Below are positions 1,591 to 62,380 of a DNA stretch of 64,000 nucleotides, in pieces (position 1 is the stretch's first letter; every line of letters starts with the position of its first letter). Under the pieces are notes generated by a model. It was not told where the DNA came from and ran no database searches. It saw only the letters and a program-made list of their open reading frames with translations. The translations under genes and the position numbers were made by a program. The stretch is from an uncultured Granulicatella sp. (GTDB lineage: Bacteria > Bacillota > Bacilli > Lactobacillales > Aerococcaceae). The stretch lies in the NCBI RefSeq assembly GCF_963515615.1, contig NZ_CAUPZT010000003.1:3841-67840 (forward strand), in the 5' to 3' direction.

Positions 1591-1615
1591 GTTCACTTAT
1601 ATATACGCAAAAAAA
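1591..1615 (-). promoter_or_regulatory. Candidate competence (ComX/sigma-X-type) promoter box upstream of radC
   Basis: Sense strand reads TTTTTTTGCGTATATATAAGTGAAC about 28 nt before the radC start. Same box as at comFA, comEA and the two nuclease genes. Confidence 0.5.
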
Positions 1616-7699: not shown

Positions 7700-9130
7700 T
7701 TATTGATAAACATGATTACACAACTGTGATAGATACAAAAACATATATTGTAAAGTTTCTTCTTTGATACTGTGTGGATTGATAAATTCCATATTCGGTA
7801 ACCACTGAGTTAATGTTTGACTTCTATAATGTTCCAATAATGATTTAAATGGATGGTGATACTGTGTTGTTAACATTCCCCTTTCAAAAGTAGATAAAGT
7901 AATCCCCAATTTTAAAAGTGGAATCCCTAAACCTTCTAATAGTAGTTGGAAAATTCTCAATGTTATTTCAAATTGATTAGAAGAGGTCTTTCCAAAATAC
8001 TCCTCAATCATTTCTTTCCATTTTTCAAGTAGCTCACTTGAAGAAATTTCTCCATTAAACCATTTTTCTTCCAACTCATAACTAATCATATCAACCACAA
8101 ATAGTTGAATGACATTAATATTCGTTAATGAAACAGGATTTCTTCTAAGTGCCAAAAAATTTTTCAGTAAAATATGAAAAACTTCTTCAGTAGTTCCAAT
8201 TTCAATAAAGTATTTTGAAATCATTTGGGCAATATCTTGAGAGATGATTGGAAGCAATGTCGCATAATAACGAAACGCTTCTTTTTGATAGAAAGAATAT
8301 TCTTCGTTTTTTTTATTTTTTGAATGTATATTGAAATAAACTTCTCCAAATAATTTTAAAAATTCAAATAACGAAATAGAAAATGAATGATACGGTGATA
8401 AATAGATTGAAAATTTGTGGTTCTCTTTTTTTATAAGTGCTCTTTGACTAAATTCGACAGAAATCCTATATGACTTTATAAGAGCATTCACTTGAAGTAA
8501 AAAGAAATGAAAGAATGAAATAGCTTGTTGCTGCGTAATATTCAACTCGCATACATCAGCATTTGTTGGATATTTTTTAGAAAGAAAATGAGAATGATAA
8601 AATTGAATCACTTTATCACGATGTTTTTTTATTTGACGACAACTAGAACAGACAAAGTCCTGACCATATATCTGTAATAAAATTTCTTGATAGGTTGGAG
8701 AGTGCAGATGGAATTTTTCAGAATAATAATCAAAATAAAACAATCGAAGATTGTCTAAATCTTCTTCAAATGATAATTCAAATAATTTTGGAGTCAGACA
8801 TTCTAACCATTTTACTTTGAATTCATCTTTTGCCTCTTTTAAATTTTTCGCAAAATATTTTTTGGCATATTTCTCCTTTAAATAATAATCAGAAATTTTT
8901 TGTATACCCTTTTTCTCATATAGGGTCAGTTCATCTATATGATTCATAAAATAGTGGTAGATCATCTTTGAATTTTGAGATTTCAGATGCTGATCCATAA
9001 ACTCAACTTGAAAAATATTATCACGTTGATCCAACTGATATTTATCAAAATATTCGTATTTTTGACTTAATTCTTCAATTAAATCAAGCGTATCGAATAA
9101 TCCACGAAGTTCACTAACTGTATATTGCAT
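7700..9130 (-). CDS. Hypothetical 476-aa protein; K/F/Y/E/L-rich, predicted helical, no motif recognised
   Basis: Long uninterrupted ORF; ATG 9130 behind AAGGGGG. Sits between prfB and ftsE. No recognisable catalytic motif. Confidence 0.6.
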   Translation of the reverse strand: MQYTVSELRGLFDTLDLIEELSQKYEYFDKYQLDQRDNIFQVEFMDQHLKSQNSKMIYHYFMNHIDELTLYEKKGIQKISDYYLKEKYAKKYFAKNLKEAKDEFKVKWLECLTPKLFELSFEEDLDNLRLFYFDYYSEKFHLHSPTYQEILLQIYGQDFVCSSCRQIKKHRDKVIQFYHSHFLSKKYPTNADVCELNITQQQAISFFHFFLLQVNALIKSYRISVEFSQRALIKKENHKFSIYLSPYHSFSISLFEFLKLFGEVYFNIHSKNKKNEEYSFYQKEAFRYYATLLPIISQDIAQMISKYFIEIGTTEEVFHILLKNFLALRRNPVSLTNINVIQLFVVDMISYELEEKWFNGEISSSELLEKWKEMIEEYFGKTSSNQFEITLRIFQLLLEGLGIPLLKLGITLSTFERGMLTTQYHHPFKSLLEHYRSQTLTQWLPNMEFINPHSIKEETLQYMFLYLSQLCNHVYQ

Positions 9131-9217
9131 TCCCAAAACCCCCTTTTATTTTCTATTTCTATTTTACCGCTTTCATCGTTATAAAACAAATATTTTTTGA
9201 CTTTTTTCCGAAAAAAT

Positions 9218-15702: not shown

Positions 15703-16386
15703 TTATCGAAATACCGTAAACAATTTAACATCCTCTATCCCTTTTTCCTGCAATAACTTTACAGCTAGTCGAATCGTTTTCCCAGTCGTATAAATATCAT
15801 CAAACAGTAAAACTTTATCCGGCAAGTTTACCTCTTCTTTCAATACAAAGGGTTGTTGCAATTGCATTCTCTCTTCTCTCGTCTTTTCAGATTGTTTTTT
15901 CCCTTTTCCAATATGGTAAAGGAATTGCTGATACGGAATTTTCGATAGTTCTAGAAAGTACTCAACCGATTCAAACTCTCTTTTTTCTAAACTTTGTTTA
16001 GAAGTGGGTAGTGGACAAATCGTATATCCTTGTTTGAGATATGTTTTTAACGCCCTTTTCAAATCTTCTTGGATTAAAAAAGCTACAGCACAGTCTCCCG
16101 TGAATTTATATCGTTCCATAAATTCTTTTGCCTGTTCATCATACACATATAATGCTTGATTCTTAGGGAAATAAGACTCCATCTCTTTCCAACGAACGCA
16201 GTCATAACAGAGTGCCGCTTCCTCCATTAAACGACCACATCCCGGACAAGTAGGTTCCTTTTCCAATGAGTGGAATAATTTTTGACACTGACGACAAATC
16301 GGTCTTGAATTCCACATGAATAAAGAACTAATTCCTGAATCTGCTGTTACATCATTTCCACACCATACACAACGCATTTTAGTCAC
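15703..16386 (-). CDS. comFC: Competence protein ComFC (phosphoribosyltransferase-like)
   Basis: N-terminal CxxC zinc ribbons plus the PRTase motif VLLFDDIYTTGKT; overlaps comFA by 8 nt. Confidence 0.85.
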   Translation of the reverse strand: MTKMRCVWCGNDVTADSGISSLFMWNSRPICRQCQKLFHSLEKEPTCPGCGRLMEEAALCYDCVRWKEMESYFPKNQALYVYDEQAKEFMERYKFTGDCAVAFLIQEDLKRALKTYLKQGYTICPLPTSKQSLEKREFESVEYFLELSKIPYQQFLYHIGKGKKQSEKTREERMQLQQPFVLKEEVNLPDKVLLFDDIYTTGKTIRLAVKLLQEKGIEDVKLFTVFR

Positions 16387-17719
16387 CTTCTATTAATCCT
16401 CTTTTTCTAGCTTCTTCATTCAATGATTCAATTTCTTTTTTAGCTTGTTTCATTGCTCGACTCATTCCTTCATAAAAATAGACAACTTCTCCCCCTGGAT
16501 GATCTACACTTCTACCTACTCTTCCTGCAATTTGTACTAACACTTCCCTTGTAAAAATCTCTTCTTGAGCCTCTGTTACAGCTACATCAATTCCATAAAA
16601 AGTAACTCCTCTCTCAAGAATCGTTGTTGTAATTAGAAAATCTAACTTTCCATCTCTCATTTGTTGTATTCTTTCTTGTCGCTGATCCTCTTGAGAGGAA
16701 ACACTGGAAAAACTTGCATTCGAAAAAGCTCGACTCATCATCTCTTCCACTGCACAAATTTGCCCAATCGTTGACACAAATATTAAAAACGGAGTTTTTT
16801 CATCTAGTCGCTTCTTCATCCAGAGATACAACTCTTGTGGAATTTTTTTCTTTTCTAAAGCGCTATTCCAATTTCGTAATTCCTTAAACAGAGGTACAAC
16901 AAGAGGATGCCGATGGAATCTTGCTGGTAATAAAGAGTACGATAGTTGATGATGTTGAATTTTGTACAATTCCAACTTTGAAGGTGTTGCTGTCATAAAG
17001 ACTAACCTTCCTACAGGCTTAACCGCACGATGGACAGCAAATTGTAACATGTCACTATTCGAGTAAGGAAAGGCATCTACTTCATCTACAATTAGTACAT
17101 CAAATGCATAATAAAATCGTAGCATTTGATGAGTCGTGGCAATAGTAATGGGGGTTCTTTTATAACTTTCATCCGTTAATCCATGTAAAACAGTCACCTC
17201 TTCTAAAGGAAAGGCTTCTTTAATTCTGGGAGCTACTTCGTTACAAACATCAATTCTTGGAGCTGCTAATCCAACTCTTCCTCCCTTTTCTAATACTGTT
17301 CGAATTAATTCAAAAATCATTTCAGTCTTTCCTGCTCCAGTAACTGCCCATACTAAATGTTCCTTATCCGTTACCTCTACTAATTCTTTTGATAATTTTT
17401 CCTGTTCTTTAGACATCGTATGCTTGTAATATAACTGAACGGAATGCGGTGGAAATGCCGGAGTTTGCTCCTCAACAGCTACTAGTACACAACATTCTTT
17501 TACTTTCCCCATATTTAAACATCTCAAACAATAATGGCAATTTTTCTGGCAAATGATACAAGGTCCCACCGCAAACTCTTCAACATTTTGATTGCCACAA
17601 CGATTACAAACAAATTTTCCACTTCCCTTATAAAATCCAGGCAATACTTCTCCCATTTGTTCTAATATAGAATCTCTTTGCGATTGAAACTTTACTTGAA
17701 TTCTTCCCTGTTCTTCCAT
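16379..17719 (-). CDS. comFA: Competence helicase/translocase ComFA
   Basis: N-terminal Cys-rich zinc fingers, Walker A AVTGAGKTE, DEAD-like LIVDEVDAF, and C-terminal helicase motifs QIAGRVGR. Confidence 0.9.
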   Translation of the reverse strand: MEEQGRIQVKFQSQRDSILEQMGEVLPGFYKGSGKFVCNRCGNQNVEEFAVGPCIICQKNCHYCLRCLNMGKVKECCVLVAVEEQTPAFPPHSVQLYYKHTMSKEQEKLSKELVEVTDKEHLVWAVTGAGKTEMIFELIRTVLEKGGRVGLAAPRIDVCNEVAPRIKEAFPLEEVTVLHGLTDESYKRTPITIATTHQMLRFYYAFDVLIVDEVDAFPYSNSDMLQFAVHRAVKPVGRLVFMTATPSKLELYKIQHHQLSYSLLPARFHRHPLVVPLFKELRNWNSALEKKKIPQELYLWMKKRLDEKTPFLIFVSTIGQICAVEEMMSRAFSNASFSSVSSQEDQRQERIQQMRDGKLDFLITTTILERGVTFYGIDVAVTEAQEEIFTREVLVQIAGRVGRSVDHPGGEVVYFYEGMSRAMKQAKKEIESLNEEARKRGLIEGD

Positions 17720-17730
17720 AGAACACCTCC

Positions 17731-17752
17731 TAATCTATATATACGAAAAAAG
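17731..17752 (-). promoter_or_regulatory. Candidate competence promoter box upstream of comFA
   Basis: Sense strand CTTTTTTCGTATATATAGATTAGGAGGTGTTCTATG. Its T-tract is also the U-tract of the oppA terminator. Confidence 0.55.
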
Positions 17753-17773
17753 CAGCGAAAAAATTCGCTGCTT
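17745..17773 (-). terminator. Rho-independent terminator after oppA
   Basis: AAGCAGCGAA/TTCGCTGCTT stem followed by TTTTTT on the minus strand. Confidence 0.7.
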
Positions 17774-17804
17774 AAAAAATTTTATACTATTTTTTTAATG
17801 AAGC

Positions 17805-24508: not shown

Positions 24509-25090
24509 TTATAATTTTATAATCATAACCTTTAATTGATTAGGAGATGTATAACCTTCTACTTGTTTAAATCCAAAATCTTGATAAAAGTTTAAAAGAT
24601 GTTCATTATTTTCACACTCAAGCCAAACATATTTAGATCCAACAATCATACATGCTTCTTGTAACTTCTTATAAGCTAATGTTAGTAAATCTTGTCCTTT
24701 AATAGTATGTTGATCATTGAAATTTCTTCCGATTTGTCCTAATAAATAACTATATATTTGTAAATCTCCATTAGAGGTTATATAACTATGATTTCTCAAA
24801 ATCTTCTTTTGTGTTTTAGAAAGCTTTTCTACATACTTTTTTGGCATAGTTAAAGGTTTATTTGCTAGAGAAAAATAACCTAATAAATTTATCGTTTGAT
24901 CAAACACCAAATACGTCGTAGAAGCTCCTACTTTCTCTAAATGAATTGCCTTATTATGTAAAAAGTATTCCACATCATTTGATTTTCCATCTTGTTGCGA
25001 AATACTTTTAAATCTATTAATTATTTCAGTCAGTTCATGCTCAAATAATTCTTCCATTAATTGTCGTAAAGTTAAAATTTGATATTTCAC
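24509..25090 (-). CDS. GNAT-fold acetyltransferase resembling TacT/AtaT/KacT-type toxins
   Basis: DVEYFLHNKAIHLEKVGASTTYLVFDQ..LLGYFSL and ..LLGQIGRN...GQDLL...LLNFYQDFGFKQV follow the pattern of GNAT toxins. GTG start overlaps the stop of the upstream small ORF (GTGA). Confidence 0.6.
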   Translation of the reverse strand: MKYQILTLRQLMEELFEHELTEIINRFKSISQQDGKSNDVEYFLHNKAIHLEKVGASTTYLVFDQTINLLGYFSLANKPLTMPKKYVEKLSKTQKKILRNHSYITSNGDLQIYSYLLGQIGRNFNDQHTIKGQDLLTLAYKKLQEACMIVGSKYVWLECENNEHLLNFYQDFGFKQVEGYTSPNQLKVMIIKL

Positions 25091-42752: not shown

Positions 42753-43676
42753 TTATGGTTCTATCGGAAGCTCCACTTGAAAATATTCCAACAGACGTTT
42801 CATCGTATCTTGTCCATCATAACAAGTATCGATTAAGTAATTCGGATTATCGAGAAATTCTTTTAATCCTCGATAGTAATAAAATTTCTTTTTATCTTCA
42901 ATAATAAATGGAATCAATGAATGTTTCAGACATTCTTTAAAGGCAATCAATCGTCCTACTCGACCATTTCCATCTTGAAATGGATGAATTTTTTCAAATT
43001 GAAAATGAAATTCTACGATATCTTCAAAACTAATCTGTTTTTTCTCATGATATTTTTTTAGTAACTGTTGAATATCATTTACTACATTATTCGGAGATGA
43101 AGTTCCAATTCCCCCTACTACATTTGGACGTATTTTATACTCTCCAACATTGAACCAAGAAAGTGTTTCATCTTTTGTTCTACTTTTCAACAAATAGTGT
43201 AACCGTTTGATGATTTCTTCTGTTAATGCTTCTTCTGCCATCTCAATACAGTAATCTATTGCTCGAAAGTGATTCACTGTTTCAATAATGTCATCTACAC
43301 TGACAGCCTCTTCACTAAACAGGGTATTCGTTTCAAATATATGCCTCGTTTGTTCTTCATTTAAACGACTTCCCTCAATATGATTCGAGTTATAAGTCAT
43401 ACGTATTTGTAACTCATGATAAATCCCTCCAGAAATCCCAAAATCCTTCTCTTCCCTTAACTGTCTAAGAATTGGATTGTTAGGAACAACAGTGTAAAGA
43501 GTTTCTTCCGCACAATCAAAATAGTCACAAAGTTTTCGAATGACTCTTGGAGAAAGTTTTTCCCCTTTTGAAATTTTTGCAATTGTTCTAGAAGAAATAT
43601 GAAGAATTTTTGTCAACTCTGATTTATTTAATTGCTTTTGCTTTAATAATTGTAATAAGCCGTTATATTGATACAT
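42753..43676 (-). CDS. Fic-domain protein with an N-terminal XRE-type HTH
   Basis: HTH LNKSELTKILHISSRTIAKISKGE; inhibitory-type motif SNHIEG; canonical Fic motif HPFQDGNGRVGR. Confidence 0.8.
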   Translation of the reverse strand: MYQYNGLLQLLKQKQLNKSELTKILHISSRTIAKISKGEKLSPRVIRKLCDYFDCAEETLYTVVPNNPILRQLREEKDFGISGGIYHELQIRMTYNSNHIEGSRLNEEQTRHIFETNTLFSEEAVSVDDIIETVNHFRAIDYCIEMAEEALTEEIIKRLHYLLKSRTKDETLSWFNVGEYKIRPNVVGGIGTSSPNNVVNDIQQLLKKYHEKKQISFEDIVEFHFQFEKIHPFQDGNGRVGRLIAFKECLKHSLIPFIIEDKKKFYYYRGLKEFLDNPNYLIDTCYDGQDTMKRLLEYFQVELPIEP

Positions 43677-45309: not shown

Positions 45310-47556
45310 TCACTCGTCTTTATAACTTTTTATCGTATGGAATTTTCGTACGCCTTTTTCTTGCATCATATGAACTGCTCCATCTTCTTGTGAGATCCAT
45401 ATATGTGAAACTTGTTGTTCTAACTGTTCTAAAAAGTGTGAACTAATATGCGATTTAACTGTCTCCTTTCCTTTTTCTAACATTAAACTATTCGTTTGCA
45501 TTTGTGTAAATCCATTTATTTTTGCTATTTCTTCTGCATTTTTCTTTGAAGCAATCACAAAGTCCGCTTTATTAGGTAAAGTTTTCACCTTATCTTCTAC
45601 TATAAGTATTCGTTCTCCTTGGATTGTAAACATAGAACTTTGAACTTCTTTCTTACTGCCATTCGCTAGAATCAATTCCCATTTCACTCCAGAAAGTAAC
45701 TGTCTCTCTCCTACTTCATGATACCGTGTCGAAACGCCCAACTCTGCAAATTCTCTTTTTTCGGATGGATTTTTAGAAACCACTACCTCACTTACTGAAA
45801 AATTTTGGATTAACTCTTTCAAATCATCACTATCTTCCACACTAGCATTCGTTAGTACAATAGAATCCAACTGAGAAATTCCTTCTACTAAAATATTATT
45901 TGTAATAGCTTTAGAAAAAGATTGTTTACGAAAGACATTCCCCTTAGAATCTGTGAACGAATTTTCTCCCCTCACTATTAAAGTAGCATGATTGAATCCT
46001 TTTGGAATATACAATACTGAAACTTGTGAACCCGTACTTAAAAAGATGATTTGCTCATGTAGATGATAAGGAATGCTAAGTGCAATGATAAAAGAACAAA
46101 ACGCAAAAACGATACTTGAATAAGGACGAAACCAAGATTTTTCATAACAAACAAGAGCTACATAAATCATAATCCAATACAATATCCAGGCTACTGTTGA
46201 CCATGTTCCAAATGTAAATCGTAAAAACAAAAATTGTTCACAAAAAGAAAAAATTTGATTCAATCCATTTAATAATGTATCTAAAAAGAAAACTATGCCA
46301 TTAGAAATCCATACCCAATTTAATACTACTGCTAAAGCGTAAAGTAAAATCCCTGGAATAAGGATACTTTCAAACAGTAAAACTACTAAACCAGCTAACA
46401 AAATACTTAGCATATTCCACGTAAAAAAATAGTGACAAATTAATGGCAAGGCAATGATAGGAGTTAAAAAAGCAATACAAATTGTTTTCTTCCATTTTCC
46501 TTTAAGATTATGTTCGACAAAATAACTCGTCAATAATAAAATTGCCGTTAATCCGTAACTAAGTTGAAAAGCTACATTTTCAATAATACTTGTTCGATAA
46601 AACAGTGACAGCAAAAATATAATTCCCAAACAATCCTCTGTTGTCAGTTTCCAATGAAACTTCTTAGACATTTGTGCTAAAATATACATTAAAATCGCTC
46701 GTGTACCACTAATATTCCAATGAATAAAGTAACCATAAATGACTAATCCAACGATAATGACAGCAACACTTGTTTCTCGAGTCATTTTCCATTTCCATAA
46801 TACTTTTTCAAGTAGATGAATAAATAATGTAATATGAAGTCCTGAAATAGCTAAAACATGCATGATTCCCAGTCTCTTATAATGCCCTATCACTGTTGCA
46901 TCTGCATCTTTCGTTTTTCCGAACAGTAATAATAAAGCATAGGTACGAACAAAACTTTCTGGCTGTTTATCAATTTTCAAATAGAATTTTCTACGCCAAT
47001 TTTGAAAGAGTGACATCCATGAAGGAGCATTTGCCATTTGTTTAAATCCTTTGACTTCAAACACACGCAAAATCCCAATGCTCCGATAATAACTTGGTGC
47101 ATTAAAATCCCCTCTATTTTTAGGTTCATTCACAGGCTTACTCTTTCCTATTACGGATAAAGTGAGATTCGCCTCATCTTCTTCAAATAGAGCTCTCTCT
47201 TTTTCAGAATGCATGTTATATTGGAATAACACTTGATGTTTAGAAGAAGTCAACTCTAATTCAGCAATTCCCGTTACAAAGTCTCCATTGATTTTCAAAT
47301 CATCCCTATTCAATCTTATAATTCCAACCAACTCCCCTTCAGGAACAATTGTAGGATGATAAACTTGATAAAAATGTAATCCAACAGAAATGAGTAAAAT
47401 AAAGACCCAGAACATCTGTTGTTTAGATTGAAAATGAAGAATGAACGTCCATATTCCTATCAAAACATAAATCCCTTTTAGAAAAAGCAAAGATTCAGAA
47501 AAGATTAAACTTCCTACTATAATCTCTAAGACCGTTATCCAAATCCACTTTTTCAT
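45310..47556 (-). CDS. comEC: DNA internalisation channel protein ComEC; C-terminal metallo-beta-lactamase motifs degenerate
   Basis: 748 aa polytopic protein with the Competence-domain motif AISGLHITLF. The C-terminal region aligns by eye to the MBL domain but reads FLSTGSQVS and LTNASVEDSDD where FLDVGQGD and THxHxDHxGG are expected. Confidence 0.85.
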   Translation of the reverse strand: MKKWIWITVLEIIVGSLIFSESLLFLKGIYVLIGIWTFILHFQSKQQMFWVFILLISVGLHFYQVYHPTIVPEGELVGIIRLNRDDLKINGDFVTGIAELELTSSKHQVLFQYNMHSEKERALFEEDEANLTLSVIGKSKPVNEPKNRGDFNAPSYYRSIGILRVFEVKGFKQMANAPSWMSLFQNWRRKFYLKIDKQPESFVRTYALLLLFGKTKDADATVIGHYKRLGIMHVLAISGLHITLFIHLLEKVLWKWKMTRETSVAVIIVGLVIYGYFIHWNISGTRAILMYILAQMSKKFHWKLTTEDCLGIIFLLSLFYRTSIIENVAFQLSYGLTAILLLTSYFVEHNLKGKWKKTICIAFLTPIIALPLICHYFFTWNMLSILLAGLVVLLFESILIPGILLYALAVVLNWVWISNGIVFFLDTLLNGLNQIFSFCEQFLFLRFTFGTWSTVAWILYWIMIYVALVCYEKSWFRPYSSIVFAFCSFIIALSIPYHLHEQIIFLSTGSQVSVLYIPKGFNHATLIVRGENSFTDSKGNVFRKQSFSKAITNNILVEGISQLDSIVLTNASVEDSDDLKELIQNFSVSEVVVSKNPSEKREFAELGVSTRYHEVGERQLLSGVKWELILANGSKKEVQSSMFTIQGERILIVEDKVKTLPNKADFVIASKKNAEEIAKINGFTQMQTNSLMLEKGKETVKSHISSHFLEQLEQQVSHIWISQEDGAVHMMQEKGVRKFHTIKSYKDE

Positions 47557-48215
47557 TGGAAAGTCACTTGGCTTTCAATCGCTTCTAAAGCTTTCTTTCC
47601 AATTCCTTTCACTTGTAATAAGTCTTCCTTTGTACGAAAGGCTCCATGTTCTTTTCGATATTGTAGAATGGCTTCTGCTTTTTTCTTTCCGATTCCTTTT
47701 ATCGTTTGTAATTCTTCCAGAGTTGCCGTATTAATATTAACCGTTCCTTTTTTTGAATTGGATGAATTCGTATTAGTCGAACTTCCTTTTCCAGAATTTT
47801 CCTCTGTGACGCTACCTTCTTGTTTAGAATGTACATTAGGAACAACAATTTGCATTTGATCGGTAATTTTTTGTGCTAAATTAATTTTTGTTTTATCTGC
47901 ATCTTCTGTAAATCCTCCTGCCTTTTTAATCACTTCTTGTATGCGACTCTCACAAGAAAACTCGTACACTCCCGGCCTTAGAACTTCCCCTTTAACATCC
48001 ACATAACAATTTTGTGGCATCATCACCGTTGTTTCTTCTACTCTTGTTGTATTGACCGCATTTGTTACCATCACTTTTTCTTTTGTAGAAGAAGCCATCA
48101 TCCCTCTTCCTACAAGAATAATAACGATAACTGCTAATACACCTCCAATTATTGACAGAACTTTTTTATATTCCATCAATAAACGTCTTACTTGCATAAA
48201 AAAATAAAACATCAT
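47553..48215 (-). CDS. comEA: DNA receptor ComEA
   Basis: N-terminal TM anchor, SLBB-like middle, C-terminal tandem helix-hairpin-helix (INTATLEELQTIKGIGKKKAEAIL...LLQVKGIGKKALEAI). AGAGGAGGG RBS before ATG 48215. Confidence 0.9.
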   Translation of the reverse strand: MMFYFFMQVRRLLMEYKKVLSIIGGVLAVIVIILVGRGMMASSTKEKVMVTNAVNTTRVEETTVMMPQNCYVDVKGEVLRPGVYEFSCESRIQEVIKKAGGFTEDADKTKINLAQKITDQMQIVVPNVHSKQEGSVTEENSGKGSSTNTNSSNSKKGTVNINTATLEELQTIKGIGKKKAEAILQYRKEHGAFRTKEDLLQVKGIGKKALEAIESQVTFQ

Positions 48216-48228
48216 TTTTCCCTCCTCT

Positions 48229-48246
48229 AACTATAGATACGAAAAA
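48229..48246 (-). promoter_or_regulatory. Candidate competence promoter box upstream of comEA
   Basis: Sense strand TTTTTTTCGTATCTATAGTTAGAGGAGGGAAAAATG. Confidence 0.55.
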
Positions 48247-56047: not shown

Positions 56048-58237
56048 TTATTTATTTGGAGGAAGCATCGATAAGCCTACTCTTCCTTTTTTAGAATCTA
56101 TTTCAATAACCCATACTGTTACAATATCCCCAACTGCAACAACATCACTTGGATGTTTCACAAATCCTTGTTTCATTCTAGAAATATGAACTAAGCCATC
56201 TTGTTTTACGCCAATATCAACAAATGCACCAAAGTCAACTACATTACGAATCGTACCTTGTAATTCCATTCCGACTTGAATATCTTCCATTGATAAAACA
56301 TCACTTCTTAAAATTGGAGGATCAATTTCCTCACGAGGATCTCTTCCAGGTTTTGTTAATCCTGCAAAAATCATATCCAAAGTTTCAAATCCAATTCCTA
56401 ACTCTTCAGATAATGAGTCTTTATCAAGAATAGACAGCGCTTGTCCTACTTTTTCTGTCCCTATTTCTAATTTTGTTGCTTGAATTTTTTCTAAAATCTT
56501 TTCAGCAATTTCATATGATTCTGGGTGAATATCTGTTCCATCTAGTGGATTTTTCCCATCCACAATTCTTAAAAATCCTACTGCTTGTTCAAAAGCCTTT
56601 GGTCCTAAGCGAGGCACTTTTTTCAATTGAGAACGATTCGTAAATTTGCCATTTTCATCACGATAAGCAACTACATTTGCGGCAGTTGTTTTTGTTAATC
56701 CTGCAATATGTTCTAGTAAAGCTGCACTCGCTGTATTGACATTCACTCCAACTTTATTCACGGCAGTTTCTACAACAATATCTAATCTCTCATCCAATTG
56801 TTTTTGACTAACATCATGTTGATATTGACCTACTCCTACTGCTTTTGGATCAATTTTCACTAATTCTGCTAATGGATCTTGCAAGCGACGAGCAATACTT
56901 ACTGCAGAACGTTCTTCAACTTGATAATCTGGGAATTCTTTTCGTGCAATCTCACTAGCTGAATAAACAGATGCACCCGCTTCACTCACAATCGTATAAT
57001 AAATTTTACGATTGATTCCCTTAATCTGTTCACTGACAAATGCTTCCGATTCACGGCTTGCAGTACCATTTCCGATTGCGATTAAAGTAACCTGATAATC
57101 TTCTAATAATTTTTTAAAACTTTCTCCTGCCTGAGCTCGTTTAAAATCACTCGCTCCTTGGTGCGGATATATAACTGCTTTGTCTAAAACTTTGCCTGTT
57201 TCATCAATAATCGCTAGTTTACAACCTGTTCTATATGCTGGGTCTAATCCTAAAATTACATGTCCTTTCATTGGAGCTTGTAATAATAAATTTTGTAAAT
57301 TTTCTCCGAAAATCTCTATTGCCTGTGTTTGAGCTTTTTCTGTTAATTCCGAACGAATTTCACGTTCAATCGCAGGTGCAATGAAACGTTTATAACTATC
57401 CTCAATTGCTGCTTTTATATAAATCGCAGATGGAGAATCTGTTTTTGAAATTTCTTTCTTTATGATTTTTTCTAATGGAATCGTTGCATCAACTTCCAAG
57501 CTAACTTTTAACACACCTTCTTTTTCAGCACGATTCACCGCTAAAATTCTGTGTGGCACAATTGTTTTAACGAGTTCCTGATAGTCGTAATACATTTCGT
57601 ATACGTGTTTTTCGTCTTTTTCCTCGTCTTTAAGACTTGTGACAAGCATAGCTTTTTTCAAAGTATTTTCTCGAACTAGTTTTCTATAAAATGCATTATC
57701 TGAAATTCTTTCTGCTATAATTTCTAAAGCACCTTTTAAAGCATCTTCAATCGTTAAAATGTCTTTTTCTGGATTTATAAATGTCGTTGCTTTACTTTCA
57801 ATTTCTTCCATCGTACAAGCAGATAAAAATTCAGCAAGTGGTTCTAATCCTGCTTCTTTAGCAATAGTAGCTTTTGTATGTTTCTTTTGTTTAAATGGTC
57901 GATAAATATCTTCTAAAGCAGTTAATGTTTTAGCTTTCATTAAGTCAGATAAGATTTCATCTGTTAATTTTTCTTGTTCATCAATTAATCGAATGACTTC
58001 ATCTTTTCTTTTTTCAAAATTAACTAAATAGCGATATCTTTCTTCAATTTCACGAATTTGAACTTCGTCCAAACTCCCAGTTTGATCTTTACGATAACGT
58101 GCTATAAATGGAACGGTATTCCCATCTTCTAATAAAGCTAGAACTGTATCAATTTGTTTTGAAGTATAGTGACTTAATTCTTGCTTCAATATCTCCAAAG
58201 CACGATACTCAATTGTTAATTCTTTTTGTTCCATCAT
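56048..58237 (-). CDS. tex: Tex-like transcription accessory protein (YqgF/HhH/S1 domains)
   Basis: 729 aa; N-terminus ..NTVPFIARYRKD.., C-terminal S1 domain (GTIRNVVDFGAFVDIG..DGLVHIS). Confidence 0.9.
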   Translation of the reverse strand: MMEQKELTIEYRALEILKQELSHYTSKQIDTVLALLEDGNTVPFIARYRKDQTGSLDEVQIREIEERYRYLVNFEKRKDEVIRLIDEQEKLTDEILSDLMKAKTLTALEDIYRPFKQKKHTKATIAKEAGLEPLAEFLSACTMEEIESKATTFINPEKDILTIEDALKGALEIIAERISDNAFYRKLVRENTLKKAMLVTSLKDEEKDEKHVYEMYYDYQELVKTIVPHRILAVNRAEKEGVLKVSLEVDATIPLEKIIKKEISKTDSPSAIYIKAAIEDSYKRFIAPAIEREIRSELTEKAQTQAIEIFGENLQNLLLQAPMKGHVILGLDPAYRTGCKLAIIDETGKVLDKAVIYPHQGASDFKRAQAGESFKKLLEDYQVTLIAIGNGTASRESEAFVSEQIKGINRKIYYTIVSEAGASVYSASEIARKEFPDYQVEERSAVSIARRLQDPLAELVKIDPKAVGVGQYQHDVSQKQLDERLDIVVETAVNKVGVNVNTASAALLEHIAGLTKTTAANVVAYRDENGKFTNRSQLKKVPRLGPKAFEQAVGFLRIVDGKNPLDGTDIHPESYEIAEKILEKIQATKLEIGTEKVGQALSILDKDSLSEELGIGFETLDMIFAGLTKPGRDPREEIDPPILRSDVLSMEDIQVGMELQGTIRNVVDFGAFVDIGVKQDGLVHISRMKQGFVKHPSDVVAVGDIVTVWVIEIDSKKGRVGLSMLPPNK

Positions 58238-58295
58238 ACCCCTCCATTCGATTTTATCCTAACATAAAATTTATTCTATTGAAAGTATTTTCAAT

Positions 58296-58378
58296 TTTCC
58301 TAAAAAAGATAAAATTCTCACAATAAAAAAATTTTTTTTTAAGATTTTTTCGTATCTATAAGTAAAGAGACAATAGTC
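58296..58378 (+). repeat. Direct repeat A1 (promoter module) upstream of the DUF1016 nuclease gene
   Basis: TTTTCCTAAAAAAG..ATAAAAAAATTTTTTTTTAAGATTTTTTCGTATCTATAAGTAAAGAGACAATAGT; near-identical second copy at 59587-59659. Confidence 0.8.
58345..58362 (+). promoter_or_regulatory. Competence-type box inside repeat A1
   Basis: TTTTTTCGTATCTATAAG; identical core to the comEA box. Confidence 0.5.
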
Positions 58379-58455
58379 GTATTCAAAATAAAATTAAGGG
58401 ATAATAAAAATGAAAGAACAGATAAACATACAAAATCTAAAAGAGATGAAACTAA

Positions 58456-59481
58456 ATGAAGCATGAAATAGATAACATTCATCAAGATATTTATAACAAT
58501 ATTAAACAATTAATGAATCAAGCAAGGAATAAGGTATCCAGAGAAGTCAATAATATTCTTGTTCAAACCTATTGGGAAATTGGACGAATTATCGTAGAAG
58601 ATGAACAGGAAAACTTAAATAGAGCTGAGTATGGGAAAAAATTAATAGCAGATTTATCAAAGAGACTTACAAAAGAATATGGCAAAGGATTTTCAAGGTC
58701 TAATTTACAAAATATGAGGAATTTTTATTTGTTGTATCCAATTTGCCAGACACTGTCTGGCAAATTAAGTTGGTCACATTATTGTGAATTACTGTCTGTC
58801 AGTGATGAAAAGAAACGAAGTTTTTACGAAAAAGAAACCATTCAAGCAAATTGGTCGGTAAGAGAGTTGAAACGGCAAATTAAAACCTCGCTTTTTGAAA
58901 GGTTACTACTCTCATCGGGAGAAGAGAATAAAGAAAAAGTATTAGACTTAGCTCTAAAAGGAAATGAAATTAATAAGGCAAGTGATCTTGTAAAAGATCC
59001 TTATGTATTTGAATTTTTAGGATTACCTGAAGAAAAGCTTATGATGGAAAGTGATTTAGAAAAATCTTTAATGACTCACATTGAAAAATTCTTACTTGAA
59101 CTAGGCAAAGGCTTTATGTATGTGGGAACACAACAAAGAATAACACTTGGAAACACTCATTATTATGTGGATATGGTATTTTACAATAAACTATTAAAAA
59201 GTTATGTTTTGATTGAATTAAAAACCGGAAAACTAATGCCAGAAGCTGTTGGACAACTCAATATGTATTTGAACTACTACAAAACAGAAGTAAATGATGA
59301 AACGGATCATGAACCAATTGGAATTATCCTTTGTACCGATAAGGATAGTATTCAAGCAGAATATGCTCTTGGAAATTTATCTAATCAAATATTTGCATCT
59401 AAATACACTTTGTATATTCCAGATAGAGAAGTACTTGAGGAACAAGTTGAGAGAGTGTTAAGGGATTATAACGGGAAATAA
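58456..59481 (+). CDS. YhcG/DUF1016-family PD-(D/E)XK nuclease
   Basis: N-terminal ..VNNILVQTYWEIGRIIVE.. and ..KGFSRSNLQNMRNFY.. are typical of DUF1016. C-terminal restriction-like core YYVDMVFYN...YVLIELKTGK (D..ExK) is intact. Confidence 0.75.
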   Translation: MKHEIDNIHQDIYNNIKQLMNQARNKVSREVNNILVQTYWEIGRIIVEDEQENLNRAEYGKKLIADLSKRLTKEYGKGFSRSNLQNMRNFYLLYPICQTLSGKLSWSHYCELLSVSDEKKRSFYEKETIQANWSVRELKRQIKTSLFERLLLSSGEENKEKVLDLALKGNEINKASDLVKDPYVFEFLGLPEEKLMMESDLEKSLMTHIEKFLLELGKGFMYVGTQQRITLGNTHYYVDMVFYNKLLKSYVLIELKTGKLMPEAVGQLNMYLNYYKTEVNDETDHEPIGIILCTDKDSIQAEYALGNLSNQIFASKYTLYIPDREVLEEQVERVLRDYNGK

Positions 59482-59586
59482 ACTAGCGTTAAATAAAAAT
59501 TGAAAGCTACTTATTCAAAAAATAAAGGACGATTACGGGAATACAAATAGTAAAATCCAAAAAATAAAGTGAACATCCCGACTTAA

Positions 59587-59659
59587 TTTTTCTAAAAAAG
59601 TTACCATAAAAAAATTTTTTTTAAGATTTTTTTCGTATCTATAAGTGAAGAGACAATAC
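59587..59659 (+). repeat. Direct repeat A2 (promoter module) upstream of the Rpn-like gene
   Basis: TTTTTCTAAAAAAG..ATAAAAAAATTTTTTTTAAGATTTTTTTCGTATCTATAAGTGAAGAGACAATACT. Confidence 0.8.
59627..59645 (+). promoter_or_regulatory. Competence-type box inside repeat A2
   Basis: TTTTTTTCGTATCTATAAG. Confidence 0.5.
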
Positions 59660-59715
59660 TAAAAATAATTTACTAGTATTCTCCTTCAAAAATAAAATAG
59701 AGAGGATGTTATCCG

Positions 59716-60369
59716 ATGGAAAAACGTACGAACCAAGCACAAACAATGACAAATGTCCTAGCACAGAAAGTTTTCAGTAATCCTGAAATAACGGCACAAT
59801 TTATGAGTGATATACTAGAACTACCCGTTCATGAAGTAAAATTACTGAATCCTTTTGAGAATCTGGATCATAATAAAGCAAGCATCACTGCCTTAGCACA
59901 ATTAGCCAGTAGATCCGAAATGATAATAGAAATTCAAATAGTGGAGGAAGTTAATATCAACGAATCCTATTATTTATATCTTTCAAACTATTTCACTAAA
60001 AATAAAGAGTTATTTGAAGCAAAAGAACTTAATCCAATGTACTTTGTCAATGAAGTACTACCATTTTATACCATTTACATCACACAAAAACGATGTTTCG
60101 ATGATGAAAGAATGTTCCATTCATTCACTTTATTAAGTGATGCTTCAAACGAATCACTAAAAGTAGATTTCAAAGGATTCGATGAACCACAAAATCTTGC
60201 TGAAATGAAATTTTTAGAATTGGATAAATATCATACAGAATATACACAAGATTACAGTAAAGTACGTTGGATTGAATTGTTCACTAATAACCCATTTACA
60301 CAAGCACCAGACCCTATACTCAAACAAGTAGAACAAATTCGAAAAACACTTGAAGACAGAAAAGAGTAA
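59716..60369 (+). CDS. Short Rpn/YhgA-like PD-(D/E)XK family protein (possibly degenerate)
   Basis: 217 aa; N-terminal ..NVLAQKVFSNPEITAQFMSDILELPV.. and ..EMIIEIQ.. resemble the PD-(D/E)XK transposase_31 family. The usual upstream Asp is not evident and the protein is shorter than the typical ~300 aa. Confidence 0.4.
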   Translation: MEKRTNQAQTMTNVLAQKVFSNPEITAQFMSDILELPVHEVKLLNPFENLDHNKASITALAQLASRSEMIIEIQIVEEVNINESYYLYLSNYFTKNKELFEAKELNPMYFVNEVLPFYTIYITQKRCFDDERMFHSFTLLSDASNESLKVDFKGFDEPQNLAEMKFLELDKYHTEYTQDYSKVRWIELFTNNPFTQAPDPILKQVEQIRKTLEDRKE

Positions 60370-60477
60370 TGCTCATTTTACAGTAAAACACTATGATAAC
60401 GACTCGATAAAAAAAGGGCAGCTGTAATAACGGCTGCCCTTTTTATCCATAAAACACCAAAAACTCTCCTATCATCC

Positions 60478-60559
60478 AAAAAGACTTCGCATAGTAGCTC
60501 AAGGCATGAAACACCGAAGCTGGTTGCTGCCGTCCCTAGCTACTATATAGCAAAGTCTA
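60478..60559 (+). repeat. Nested-hairpin repeat, copy 9 (short form)
   Basis: AAAAGACTTCGCATAGTAGCT..GAAACACCGAAGCTGGTTGCTGCCGTCCCTAGCTACTATATAGCAAAGTCT; between convergent genes. Confidence 0.7.
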
Positions 60560-60571
60560 TTTCTAAATTTA

Positions 60572-62380
60572 TCAGTCTAAATCAAGCTGCCCCGTATACA
60601 ATTGATAGTACACACCTTGTTTTTCCATTAAACTTTCATGGTTCCCACGCTCAATAATCTCACCATGGTCCATAACCATAATCACATCCGCATTACGAAT
60701 CGTCGATAAACGATGGGCAATTACAAACGAAGTTCTACCTTCCATCAATTGGTCCATCCCTTTACTAATCAACGCTTCCGTATGACTATCAATCGAACTA
60801 GTCGCTTCATCCAAAATTAACACCTTCGGATTTGCTACTGCAGCCCTAGCAATCGCTAATAACTGTCTTTGCCCTTGAGAAAGACCTTCACCATCACCAG
60901 TAATCTCCGTTTGATACCCATGAGGCAAACGTTTAATGAACCCATGCGCATTCGCTAATTTCGCAGCTTTTACCACTTCATCATCTGTCGCATCTAAATT
61001 CCCATAACGAATATTATCTGCAATCGAACCCGTAAACAAATGCGTATCTTGTAATACAATCGAAATGGTTTTACGTAAATCATCTTTCTTAATTTCCGTA
61101 ATCGGAATTGTATCAAACGTAATTTCTCCATTATCAATTTCATAAAATCGATTAATTAAATTCGTAATCGTAGTTTTCCCAGCACCTGTTGCACCCACAA
61201 AAGCTACTTTCAATCCTGGTTCAGCCCAAACATTGATTTTTTTCAAAATTGGTACATCTGAAACATAACTAAAGTCCACTTCATTCAATTGAATATTCCC
61301 AACAACAGGGATTCTCTCTTCTCCTTTTACCCAATACCATTGTTTTGAATCTGTTTGATCTAAAGTTACAGTTCCTTCATCCACTTCAGATTCTTCTTTT
61401 AATATCGCAAAAATTCGTTCTGCCCCAGCCATTGCAGCTAATAAGACATTTGTTTGTTGTGACATTTGTGCTAATGGTTGTGCAAATGTTCTTGAATATT
61501 GTAAAAATGAAGCTAACGCCCCAACGTCCATTCCTTGAAATACGACTAAATATCCACCAACTGAAGCGGTTAAAGCATAATTAATATAACTAATATTGCC
61601 TAAAATAGGAAACATGATATTTGAATTAAATTGTGCTTGATTCGCAGCTTCTCTTAATTGAGAATTTAAAGTTTCAAATTCTTTTAAGACTAATGTTTCA
61701 TGATTGAATACTTTAACGACTTTTTGCCCTTCAATATGTTCTTCTACAAAGCCATTCACTTGCCCTAGAACTTTTTGTTGTTCAGCAAAGAATTTACCCG
61801 AACGACCTGCTACTACTCTAACAATCGCAAACATAATCAAGACCATAACAATCAACATTACTGTTAAAATTGGAGATAAAATAATCATCATCACAAAAGT
61901 TAGCACCAATTGTAATAAAGAGCTGACAATCATCAACATACTATTATTAAACGCTTGTTGGATATTTTCAAAATCATTTGTAAAACGAGACATTAAATCC
62001 CCATGTTTATTTGTATCAAAGAAACGAATTGGCAATGTTTGAATATGGTCGAATAAATCTTTTCTCATCGTTTCAATCGTTTGTTGACCAATCGTAATCA
62101 TAATTTTCCCAGAGAAATAATTCGCAATCGCCCCAATAATATAAATCAACCCAATGACTCCTAGCATTTTTGCTAGACCTACTACATCTTTTGTCGCAAT
62201 AAAATCATTAATTAATGGTCGAATAAAGTAAGTCCCTACAATTCCTGCAGCACTACCTAACACAACTAATAAAAGAACAGCGAAAAGACTCCACTTACTT
62301 TTCCATAAATAGCTCCATAAGTCAGCTAATGTTTGCTTTAAATTTTCAGGACGTTTTGATCCGATTTTTTTAACGCTCAT
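60572..62380 (-). CDS. ABC multidrug-type exporter, permease/ATPase subunit B of a heterodimer
   Basis: 602 aa; Walker A GATGAGKTT, signature LSQGQRQLL, Walker B LILDEATSSID. Confidence 0.85.
   Translation of the reverse strand: MSVKKIGSKRPENLKQTLADLWSYLWKSKWSLFAVLLLVVLGSAAGIVGTYFIRPLINDFIATKDVVGLAKMLGVIGLIYIIGAIANYFSGKIMITIGQQTIETMRKDLFDHIQTLPIRFFDTNKHGDLMSRFTNDFENIQQAFNNSMLMIVSSLLQLVLTFVMMIILSPILTVMLIVMVLIMFAIVRVVAGRSGKFFAEQQKVLGQVNGFVEEHIEGQKVVKVFNHETLVLKEFETLNSQLREAANQAQFNSNIMFPILGNISYINYALTASVGGYLVVFQGMDVGALASFLQYSRTFAQPLAQMSQQTNVLLAAMAGAERIFAILKEESEVDEGTVTLDQTDSKQWYWVKGEERIPVVGNIQLNEVDFSYVSDVPILKKINVWAEPGLKVAFVGATGAGKTTITNLINRFYEIDNGEITFDTIPITEIKKDDLRKTISIVLQDTHLFTGSIADNIRYGNLDATDDEVVKAAKLANAHGFIKRLPHGYQTEITGDGEGLSQGQRQLLAIARAAVANPKVLILDEATSSIDSHTEALISKGMDQLMEGRTSFVIAHRLSTIRNADVIMVMDHGEIIERGNHESLMEKQGVYYQLYTGQLDLD

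Follow-up and report, generated by a model that had tools for sequence, protein, structure and literature searches.

We will describe a locus found in 64,000 nucleotides of DNA from an uncultured Granulicatella sp. (contig NZ_CAUPZT010000003.1, positions 3,841 to 67,840 of the forward strand); this whole stretch will be called the window. At the locus the gene tex (56048–58237, minus strand) is divergent from two plus-strand open reading frames (ORFs), and on their other side there is a convergent pair of ABC exporter genes. An earlier note on this DNA had placed two plus-strand genes between tex and the exporter, and both ORFs are present with the limits given below. The first one codes for a DUF1016/YhcG nuclease; the second one, orf217, codes for a protein which we relate to the Rpn family (PDDEXK_2). 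Each of them is preceded by one copy of a direct repeat, called here modules A and B. The features of the locus are the following:

58293–58375, plus strand: module A, read as an Rpn-cassette promoter, with an A/T-tract and the box core CGTATCTATA at 58351–58360; direct repeat of module B
58376–58439, plus strand: vestige of a replaced Rpn gene of the full-length type, with the leader, the ribosome-binding site and 10 initial codons, whose ATG is at 58410; it aligns with the 5' untranslated region and start of the Rpn genes of loci L014 and L016
58410–58466, plus strand: upstream ORF (uORF), formed by the 10 Rpn codons and the incoming DNA up to its first stop; it overlaps the DUF1016 ATG at 58456
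58440–59502, plus strand: captured segment of 1,063 bp as delimited by blastn, with the DUF1016 gene and its own ribosome-binding site, without the sigma-A promoter
58456–59481, plus strand: DUF1016/YhcG PD-(D/E)XK nuclease gene, 341 amino acids, with D239, E254 and K256 present
59503–59584, plus strand: spacer, seen solely at loci which bear DUF1016
59585–59658, plus strand: module B, read as an Rpn-cassette promoter, with the box core CGTATCTATA at 59634–59643
59647–59687, plus strand: predicted leader hairpin (GAAG...CTTC), 5'-terminal in the orf217 transcript, minimum free energy -10.6 kcal/mol, z = -4.3
59716–60369, plus strand: orf217, 217 amino acids, a truncated and catalytically degenerate N-terminal domain of the Rpn family
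60409–60445, no strand assigned: GC-rich terminator-like hairpin between a run of A and a run of T, recognised in the sequence itself

The two modules align in two blocks separated by a 9-bp indel: 58310–58375 and 59593–59658 are 85% identical without gaps, 58293–58311 and 59585–59603 are 89% identical. The repeats had been called near-identical in the earlier note. Their positions are as stated there, but near-identity is limited to the promoter part; each of the leaders which follow is that of a different Rpn subfamily. In the window the variant TTTTTTTTAAGA is common to the promoter parts of both modules, and in L001 only copy A has TTTTTTTTAAGA. This distribution suggests gene conversion between the module copies, with a partial homogenisation in the lineage of the window.

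Inside the repeat, upstream of both ORFs, lies the box TTTTTT(T)CGTATCTATAA. A search of the window with TTTNCGTATMTATA, allowing up to one mismatch, gives five sites, whereas 0.30 are expected. The same five sites are obtained with TTTTTTNCGTATMTATAR and up to two mismatches (0.28 expected), and no shuffle reached five. They are found at the following positions:

58347–58360, plus strand: faces the DUF1016 gene
59630–59643, plus strand: faces orf217
1598–1611, minus strand: faces radC (877–1596)
17736–17749, minus strand: faces comFA (16379–17719) and comFC (15703–16386)
48232–48245, minus strand: faces comEA (47553–48215) and comEC (45310–47556)

Three of the five sites thus stand before the com operons where the box had already been noticed. 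The earlier note had also raised the possibility that the box is common at promoters unrelated to competence. No box is found before the other approximately 30 ORFs of the window scanned against Pfam, which are housekeeping, transport and uncharacterised genes and include valS, ftsEX, prfB, secA, hpf, opp, rex, asd, uvrB, holA, coaD, pyc, ftsW and tex. Immediately before the comFA box (17752–17790, minus strand) the upstream T-tract is part of a GC-rich hairpin, GCAGCGAATTTTTTCGCTGC. This hairpin has the appearance of a terminator for the oppA-like gene which precedes; a terminator and a competence promoter would then overlap there.

The box resembles known competence promoters. The streptococcal cin-box is TTNCGAATAA (PMC9300618). 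In pneumococcus the extended ComX motif is TTTTTNHNNNYTHTTMCGAATADWNWRRD, followed by the transcription start site 8 nt past CGAATA (PMC6560143). The Granulicatella promoters have the form TTTTT(C/T)G-N2-6-TTTTT(T)CGTAT(A/C)TA(T/G)A, with the same layout of T-tracts as in TTTTTNHNNNYTHTTMCGAATADWNWRRD; in their core, CGTATA, one base is changed with respect to the streptococcal CGAATA. By analogy, the transcription start sites are predicted near 58364 for module A and near 59647 for module B, about 8 nt after each box.

We also scanned metagenome contigs with the pattern TTTTTYGN{2,6}TTTTNCGTATMTAKA and classed the first ORF downstream of each match. At least 120 loci were found. Clustering places an Rpn-like (PDDEXK_2) gene downstream of the box in at least 29 of them. 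Among the matches listed there are also seven CoiA genes (PF06054), one of whose cluster members is named competence protein CoiA of Granulicatella elegans; five RadC genes, assigned by clustering; one ComGA-like T2SSE ATPase (PF00437), which lies on a 1-kb contig piece not assigned to Granulicatella; and one locus with DUF1016 and orf217, L136. The CoiA hit is one of those which the earlier note had proposed to look for. The remaining matches are singletons. Two of them were looked up and are chance matches, a Fervidobacterium GAF-domain protein and a marine protein of 144 amino acids; the others, which are found on contigs of higher GC content, were also judged to be due to chance.

The likeness of the motif and its association with com genes make it very probable that the box is the ComX/sigma-X-type promoter of late competence in Granulicatella. 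Since it precedes the com operons as well as coiA, radC and a comGA-like gene, the DUF1016 gene and orf217 are predicted to be transcribed together with the com genes; membership of both in the late-competence regulon, as the earlier note had proposed, is the best reading of their promoters. The box might instead be read by a factor which is not specific for competence, for example a stress-responsive sigma-H-like factor that co-regulates com genes with defence or toxin genes, in which case competence-timed would be the wrong label. The CGTATA core does differ from the canonical CGAATA; the corresponding factor of bacteria other than streptococci and lactococci is sigma-H-like and has a poorly defined regulon, and among the matches listed most of the genes linked to the box are Rpn-like rather than com genes. 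However, all the identifiable genes behind the box in Granulicatella contigs which are neither Rpn nor captured are radC, comFA/FC, comEA/EC and coiA, and the layout of the motif matches the pneumococcal ComX motif. We consider this alternative very unlikely.

The modules belong to a family of genes. A Granulicatella paralogue of 314 amino acids found at another locus, L014, is 45% identical to orf217 over all its 217 residues and matches PF12784 with 75 bits and TIGR01784 ('Rpn family recombination-promoting nuclease/putative transposase') with 61 bits, above the cut-off of 52. Its upstream region aligns with module B through promoter, leader and start codon, and the farther flanks are unrelated. 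The module is thus conserved before the homologues of orf217 and also before this 45%-identical paralogue; the region of module A is homologous to the promoters of the Rpn-like genes in L014 and L016. From these alignments we read the module as the native, ancestral promoter and leader of multi-copy Rpn-family genes. The relatives of orf217 itself are found solely in contigs of uncultured Granulicatella sp., besides many metagenome assemblies.

The full-length Granulicatella paralogues pass the PF12784 threshold. Their lengths go from 307 to 347 amino acids in steps of 4, owing to a variable number of xEGx repeats in the C-terminal region (proteins P0100–P0179, alignment columns 255–310). They keep D, D, E and Q at the positions which correspond to the catalytic residues of RpnA. 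Tandem cassettes also exist (L043). Comparison of the interval between tex and the ABC exporter in different contigs gives the following contents:

Window, L001–L010 and L136: DUF1016 and orf217
L012 and L013: orf217 alone
L016–L018: a full-length Rpn gene of 307 amino acids
L019–L021: a split Rpn gene, 92 + 220 amino acids (three Illumina assemblies)

All these variants have the box. From the alignments we read the interval as a slot which in Granulicatella holds Rpn-family cassettes of variable content. Frameshifts in homopolymer runs are found in the Rpn genes of L036, L041, L098, L106 and L116, all of them BNJT/BNJS contigs. As radC is affected too, they are probably errors of long-read assembly and we have not counted them as pseudogenes.

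The leader has its own peculiarities. The z-score of the hairpin at 59647–59687 refers to mononucleotide shuffles and to folds of single sequences. Hairpins which start at the predicted +1, with a different inner sequence, are found in other Rpn subfamilies (L012–L014, L040, L050, L061, L062 and others); RNAalifold on a MAFFT alignment of the Rpn leaders gave no consensus pairs. The hairpin is deleted from module A in the window and present in L136. It might stabilise the messenger RNA or control translation.

The DUF1016 gene has a different origin. As the earlier note had recognised, it is a YhcG/DUF1016 nuclease with an intact D..ExK core (D239, E254, K256): it matches PF17761 (DUF1016_N) with 172.3 bits and PF06250 (YhcG_C) with 195.4 bits, the cut-offs being about 32.5. 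It also matches the PADLOC candidate defence system PDC-S02 with 461 bits; its defence activity is a database prediction. The ratio of non-synonymous to synonymous substitution rates (dN/dS) is 0.06–0.17, which corresponds to strong purifying selection. Proteins which are 84–87% identical are found in records of Johnsonella ignava, Streptococcus pyogenes and Peptoanaerobacter stomatis, and more distant relatives on 533 plasmid records. In the contigs with the 84–87% identical copies the gene lies between genes for a MobA/MobL relaxase and a replication organiser, and farther on there are genes for a large serine recombinase, a TrbL-like protein and a methylase; this neighbourhood indicates a conjugative or mobilisable element. 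The copy in the element stands behind a sigma-A promoter, TTGAAT-17-TGgTATAAT, and has no box.

Positions 58440–59502 have 84% nucleotide identity to L145 (Johnsonella ignava) and to L142 over exactly this span, which begins 16 nt before the ATG, whereas 58200–58439 matches in blastn the end of tex, the module, the leader, the ATG and the first 10 codons of an Rpn cassette. The junctions are thus at 58439/58440 and near 59502. Sister Granulicatella have the same tex/ABC slot without DUF1016. The comparison shows the gene to be an insertion specific to this lineage, which came from a conjugative or mobilisable element and was fused to an Rpn gene at its codon 10. As the sigma-A promoter was left behind, DUF1016 would now depend on the box promoter.

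The junction also explains the uORF of 18 codons overlapping the DUF1016 start, which had been noticed before and is present at 58410–58466. In L136 the sequence at this position is ATG TAA, so that the ORF is not conserved, and DUF1016 came with a Shine-Dalgarno sequence of its own, which in relatives is AAGAGGTG. For these two reasons we have rejected the uORF as a translational coupler. It is a vestigial chimera built on the leftover 5' end of the Rpn gene, and a regulatory role is unlikely.

Similar arrangements are found elsewhere. In L075 (minus strand, box at 247 of the reverse complement) and L089 (890–2546) the box, the Rpn leader and the first 3–5 codons are followed by an AbiEi/AbiEii pair (PADLOC 229 and 282 bits). 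The whole unit of module, Rpn remnant and DUF1016 is found at a second locus (L023, 639–3881; L026, 2977–5641 of the reverse complement), with 87.6% nucleotide identity to 58327–59482 of the window. There it adjoins a phage-type lysin (Amidase_2 + CW_7), followed by a gene for a class-I S-adenosylmethionine-dependent methyltransferase and another cassette with box and Rpn gene. Its presence at a second locus indicates that the unit has moved, plausibly by recombination between module copies.

These cases could mean that the 5' end of the Rpn cassette is a recurrent landing pad for promoterless defence genes, similar to an integron, in which Rpn is one cargo among several. DUF1016 and AbiEi/AbiEii are indeed joined within the first 3–10 codons of two different Rpn subfamilies; the DUF1016 unit is bracketed by module copies at each of its two loci, and the tandem cassettes would also fit. 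Against this, there are two types of cargo only, compared with dozens of Rpn genes, and the AbiE insert may carry its own promoter, as there is a TATAAT-like hexamer upstream. No transposase or recombinase and no attachment-site repeat linked to the modules or the insert was found, nor any target duplication, and homologous recombination of module copies following transformation accounts for the movement just as well. A dedicated landing pad appears unlikely. That two unrelated defence-type cargoes have been joined to the very start of Rpn genes may be due to a mechanism or to chance together with selection. The module of about 75 bp was also considered as a transposon or a miniature inverted-repeat transposable element; it was rejected, as there are no terminal inverted repeats, nor target duplications at the modules or the insert.

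The protein encoded by orf217 is a degenerate member of the family. RpnA needs D11, D63, E82 and Q84; the mutants D11A and D63A lose all activity, the latter being inactive in vivo and in vitro (PMC5350276). In orf217 the two aspartates are replaced by N13 and T58, while E72 and Q74 (IIEIQ) are kept, an equivalence of positions inferred from the alignment of motifs. The protein ends just before the C-terminal region of 4-amino-acid repeats, which corresponds to the RpnS antitoxin region. The earlier note had called it an Rpn/YhgA-like protein with MIIEIQ and no obvious catalytic Asp. The motif and the missing Asp (a Thr instead) are as it described; the family has to be assigned through homologues, P0012 (82% identical) and P0046 (77%), whose PF12784 scores of 38 and 37 bits lie above the cut-off of 27.4. 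With TIGR01784 P0012 scores 19.8, the cut-off being 52.1. The dN/dS of orf217 with respect to its orthologues is 0.2–0.4, which means that it is still under purifying selection. We infer a nuclease-dead protein with a retained role, such as DNA binding, regulation or interference with paralogues. As a speculation, the loss of the antitoxin-like region may be tolerable only once the active site is gone.

All these features lead us to an explanation of the locus as a variable slot for Rpn cassettes with competence-type promoters, one of which has been overwritten by a captured DUF1016 gene, while the other encodes the dead orf217. We give it a probability of about 0.68. A cassette would consist of a promoter module of about 75–85 bp, a short hairpin leader and an Rpn-family gene; the module would be an A/T-tract plus TTTTTTCGTAT(A/C)TA(T/G)A, the form which the ComX/sigma-X cin-box takes here. 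Production of the competence sigma factor would let RNA polymerase start at the two sites predicted above. The comparison of sequences shows that cassette A once contained a full-length Rpn gene, until the 1,063-bp piece of an element with DUF1016 was joined at its codon 10. Cassette B has kept the N-domain of Rpn in orf217, having lost both catalytic Asp and the whole C-terminal repeat/antitoxin region. Both genes would be accessory, lineage-specific members of the late-competence regulon, not part of the uptake machinery, with a transcription presumably timed to competence; DUF1016 would be an active cytoplasmic nuclease of a defence-candidate type. Transcription from module A probably continues into orf217, and the end of both transcripts would be at 60409–60445. 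The hairpin found there is likely to be a bidirectional terminator, common to orf217 and the convergent ABC exporter gene. Rfam gives only sub-threshold matches in 58150–60650, all at this hairpin: they are weak matches to terminator-like small RNAs on both strands.

The word pair, used in the earlier note for the two nucleases, does not fit: the modules are by origin promoters and leaders of Rpn cassettes, DUF1016 is a lineage-specific insertion and orf217 lacks the catalytic Asp.

Several observations weigh against our explanation. The scan pattern was built from the radC, comFA and Rpn promoters, so that the predominance of Rpn genes (and the presence of radC) among the matches is partly built in; the coiA and comGA matches are independent of the way in which the pattern was built. 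The com genes covered are limited to radC, comFA/FC, comEA/EC, coiA and the comGA-like gene. No gene similar to comX or sigH was found in the DNA which was read, namely the window and short flanks. We found no description of natural competence in Granulicatella in the literature. The dependence on a sigma factor and the start sites are deduced from the similarity of the motif and from gene association. The orf217 of the window does not reach any threshold in Pfam or NCBIfam, and its structure prediction (with 21 and 44 sequences) has a low confidence, with a mean pLDDT (predicted local distance difference test) of 51–52; a Foldseek search of this model against PDB gave nothing below E = 0.04, and searches of PDB sequences and profiles with orf217, the Rpn alignment and DUF1016 gave no matches. 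What we say about transcript ends is weak: a simple terminator scan detected no terminator in the spacer 59503–59584, but it also missed the obvious hairpin at 60409–60445, so that its null result between DUF1016 and orf217 carries little weight. Finally, ComEC (748 amino acids, 45310–47556, minus strand) matches only the 'Competence' domain (residues 210–472) and no HxHxDH metallo-beta-lactamase motif is found in its C-terminal region of about 280 residues, in agreement with the loss of the ComEC nuclease which had been pointed out earlier. The regulon might thus be partly defunct.

If this were carried further, the modules would be inert scars of cassette shuffling and of the DUF1016 insertion: competence would be defunct and the genes silent, or expressed by read-through or from a weak sigma-A promoter. 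The missing reports of competence in the genus and the state of ComEC could be taken in this sense, as well as the Rpn genes split in the three Illumina assemblies and a natural point variant of the orf217 box, CATAT instead of CGTAT, in one metagenome-assembled genome (L010, 5912–5940). Yet the box is invariant across species and across cassettes whose proteins are 45% identical, and it is equally conserved before radC, comFA, comEA and coiA. Both DUF1016 and orf217 are under purifying selection although DUF1016 has lost its own sigma-A promoter, and no sigma-70-type promoter above chance is found in 58150–60650. We find silent scars quite unlikely.

The state of ComEC had led to another proposal in the earlier note, namely that the two nucleases could process or police incoming DNA, or supply in trans the activity which ComEC appears to have lost. 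A ComEC with the 'Competence' domain only, next to an intact D..ExK nuclease behind the same box, speaks for the idea. The nuclease domain of ComEC is thought to act outside the membrane, and strands are degraded on the outer side of the membrane during uptake (ComEC, EndA). However, no obvious N-terminal signal sequence is seen by eye, with no predictor run, in either DUF1016 or orf217. DUF1016 is not conserved in the genus: it is absent from the same locus in sister Granulicatella, and it is a recent import which had a sigma-A promoter in its source element. Lacking both Asp, orf217 cannot supply nuclease activity, as the equivalent D63A mutant of RpnA is inactive. A replacement of ComEC by these two proteins is therefore highly improbable.

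Some other features of the window may be mentioned. Two ORFs have no Pfam match at E <= 1e-5: one of 478 amino acids (7700–9136, minus strand) between ftsE and prfB, the other of 193 amino acids (24509–25090, minus strand) which adjoins the opp operon. Between uvrB and holA there is a Fic/DOC-family protein with an N-terminal helix-turn-helix (42753–43676, minus strand), which could be toxin-like or regulatory; its other neighbours are housekeeping genes.

The closest known case is found in pneumococcus. In S. pneumoniae the loci SPV_2082 and SPV_2340 of D39V and a locus downstream of prs1 in INV200 are ComX-regulated Rpn-like pseudogenes; these genes carry the annotation 'recombination-promoting nuclease or transposase', exist in several copies and show decay and rearrangement, and a relevance for horizontal transfer was suspected where the gene is intact (Slager 2019, PMC6560143). 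As in these pseudogenes, a ComX-type box stands directly upstream of the Rpn-like genes of Granulicatella, whereas many of the copies are intact and full length with variable 4-amino-acid repeats, the box is CGTATA instead of CGAATA, and in one cassette a foreign nuclease gene has taken the place of the Rpn gene. The link with the pneumococcal genes is the shared NCBI family name only.

Another relative is the group of E. coli Rpn (YhgA-like) proteins, which are toxin-antitoxin nucleases (Kingston 2017, PMC5350276; Zhong 2023, PMC10400941). Their RpnS antitoxin/oligomerisation domain varies in length with the number of repeats (PMC10400941), and according to the same paper Rpn proteins are not conventional transposases. 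The full-length Granulicatella proteins keep D...D...ExQ in the same way and vary at the C-terminal end in steps of 4 amino acids. They differ in belonging to PF12784, not PF04754, and in being placed behind a competence-type promoter, a regulation not reported for E. coli rpn; orf217 differs further by the absence of catalytic Asp and of the entire RpnS region.

With the streptococcal SigX regulon the Granulicatella genes share the T-tracts before the element in the -10 region, the box before comFA, comEA, radC, coiA and comGA, and short leaders. The core differs by one base, and the genus belongs to Carnobacteriaceae, with no described competence. The SigX regulon has accessory, species-specific members, which include the restriction-related dpnA and SMU.505/506, and no Rpn genes are among the core streptococcal genes quoted for it from Khan 2016 (PMC5069739). 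Finally, DUF1016 shares with the PDC-S02 genes on conjugative elements and plasmids the two-domain architecture and the intact D..ExK, with copies 84–87% identical in an element of oral Firmicutes; the gene in the window differs by being chromosomal, without a sigma-A promoter and fused behind the competence-type promoter of an Rpn gene.

What Rpn proteins do for the cell is not settled: both RecA-independent horizontal transfer and toxin-antitoxin phage defence have been proposed. Our results describe what would be an accessory competence-regulon cassette of the Rpn type, new in its intact relatives, its variant box and its captured foreign nuclease. A wider proposal, which we offer tentatively and with considerable doubt, is that Rpn nucleases have long belonged to the competence regulon of Lactobacillales (Streptococcus, Granulicatella) as accessory members and act in transformation; the DUF1016 and AbiE fusions would be footprints of this activity and the cassette a platform for the competence-timed capture of defence genes. 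If this were true, breaks made by Rpn would, for instance, let non-homologous foreign DNA join the chromosome, or Rpn would guard the cell during DNA uptake. At the level of promoters, pneumococcal pseudogenes were until now the only case of a link between Rpn and competence; here it concerns intact, repeat-variable genes in a second family of Lactobacillales. Granulicatella would thus be a natural setting to test the role of Rpn on incoming and resident DNA. The locus also shows how a defence-type nuclease which lands in a cassette already present can be rewired from a constitutive promoter to one of the competence type, and it defines a probable competence box, CGTATA in type, for this common oral genus, in which no transformation system has been described.

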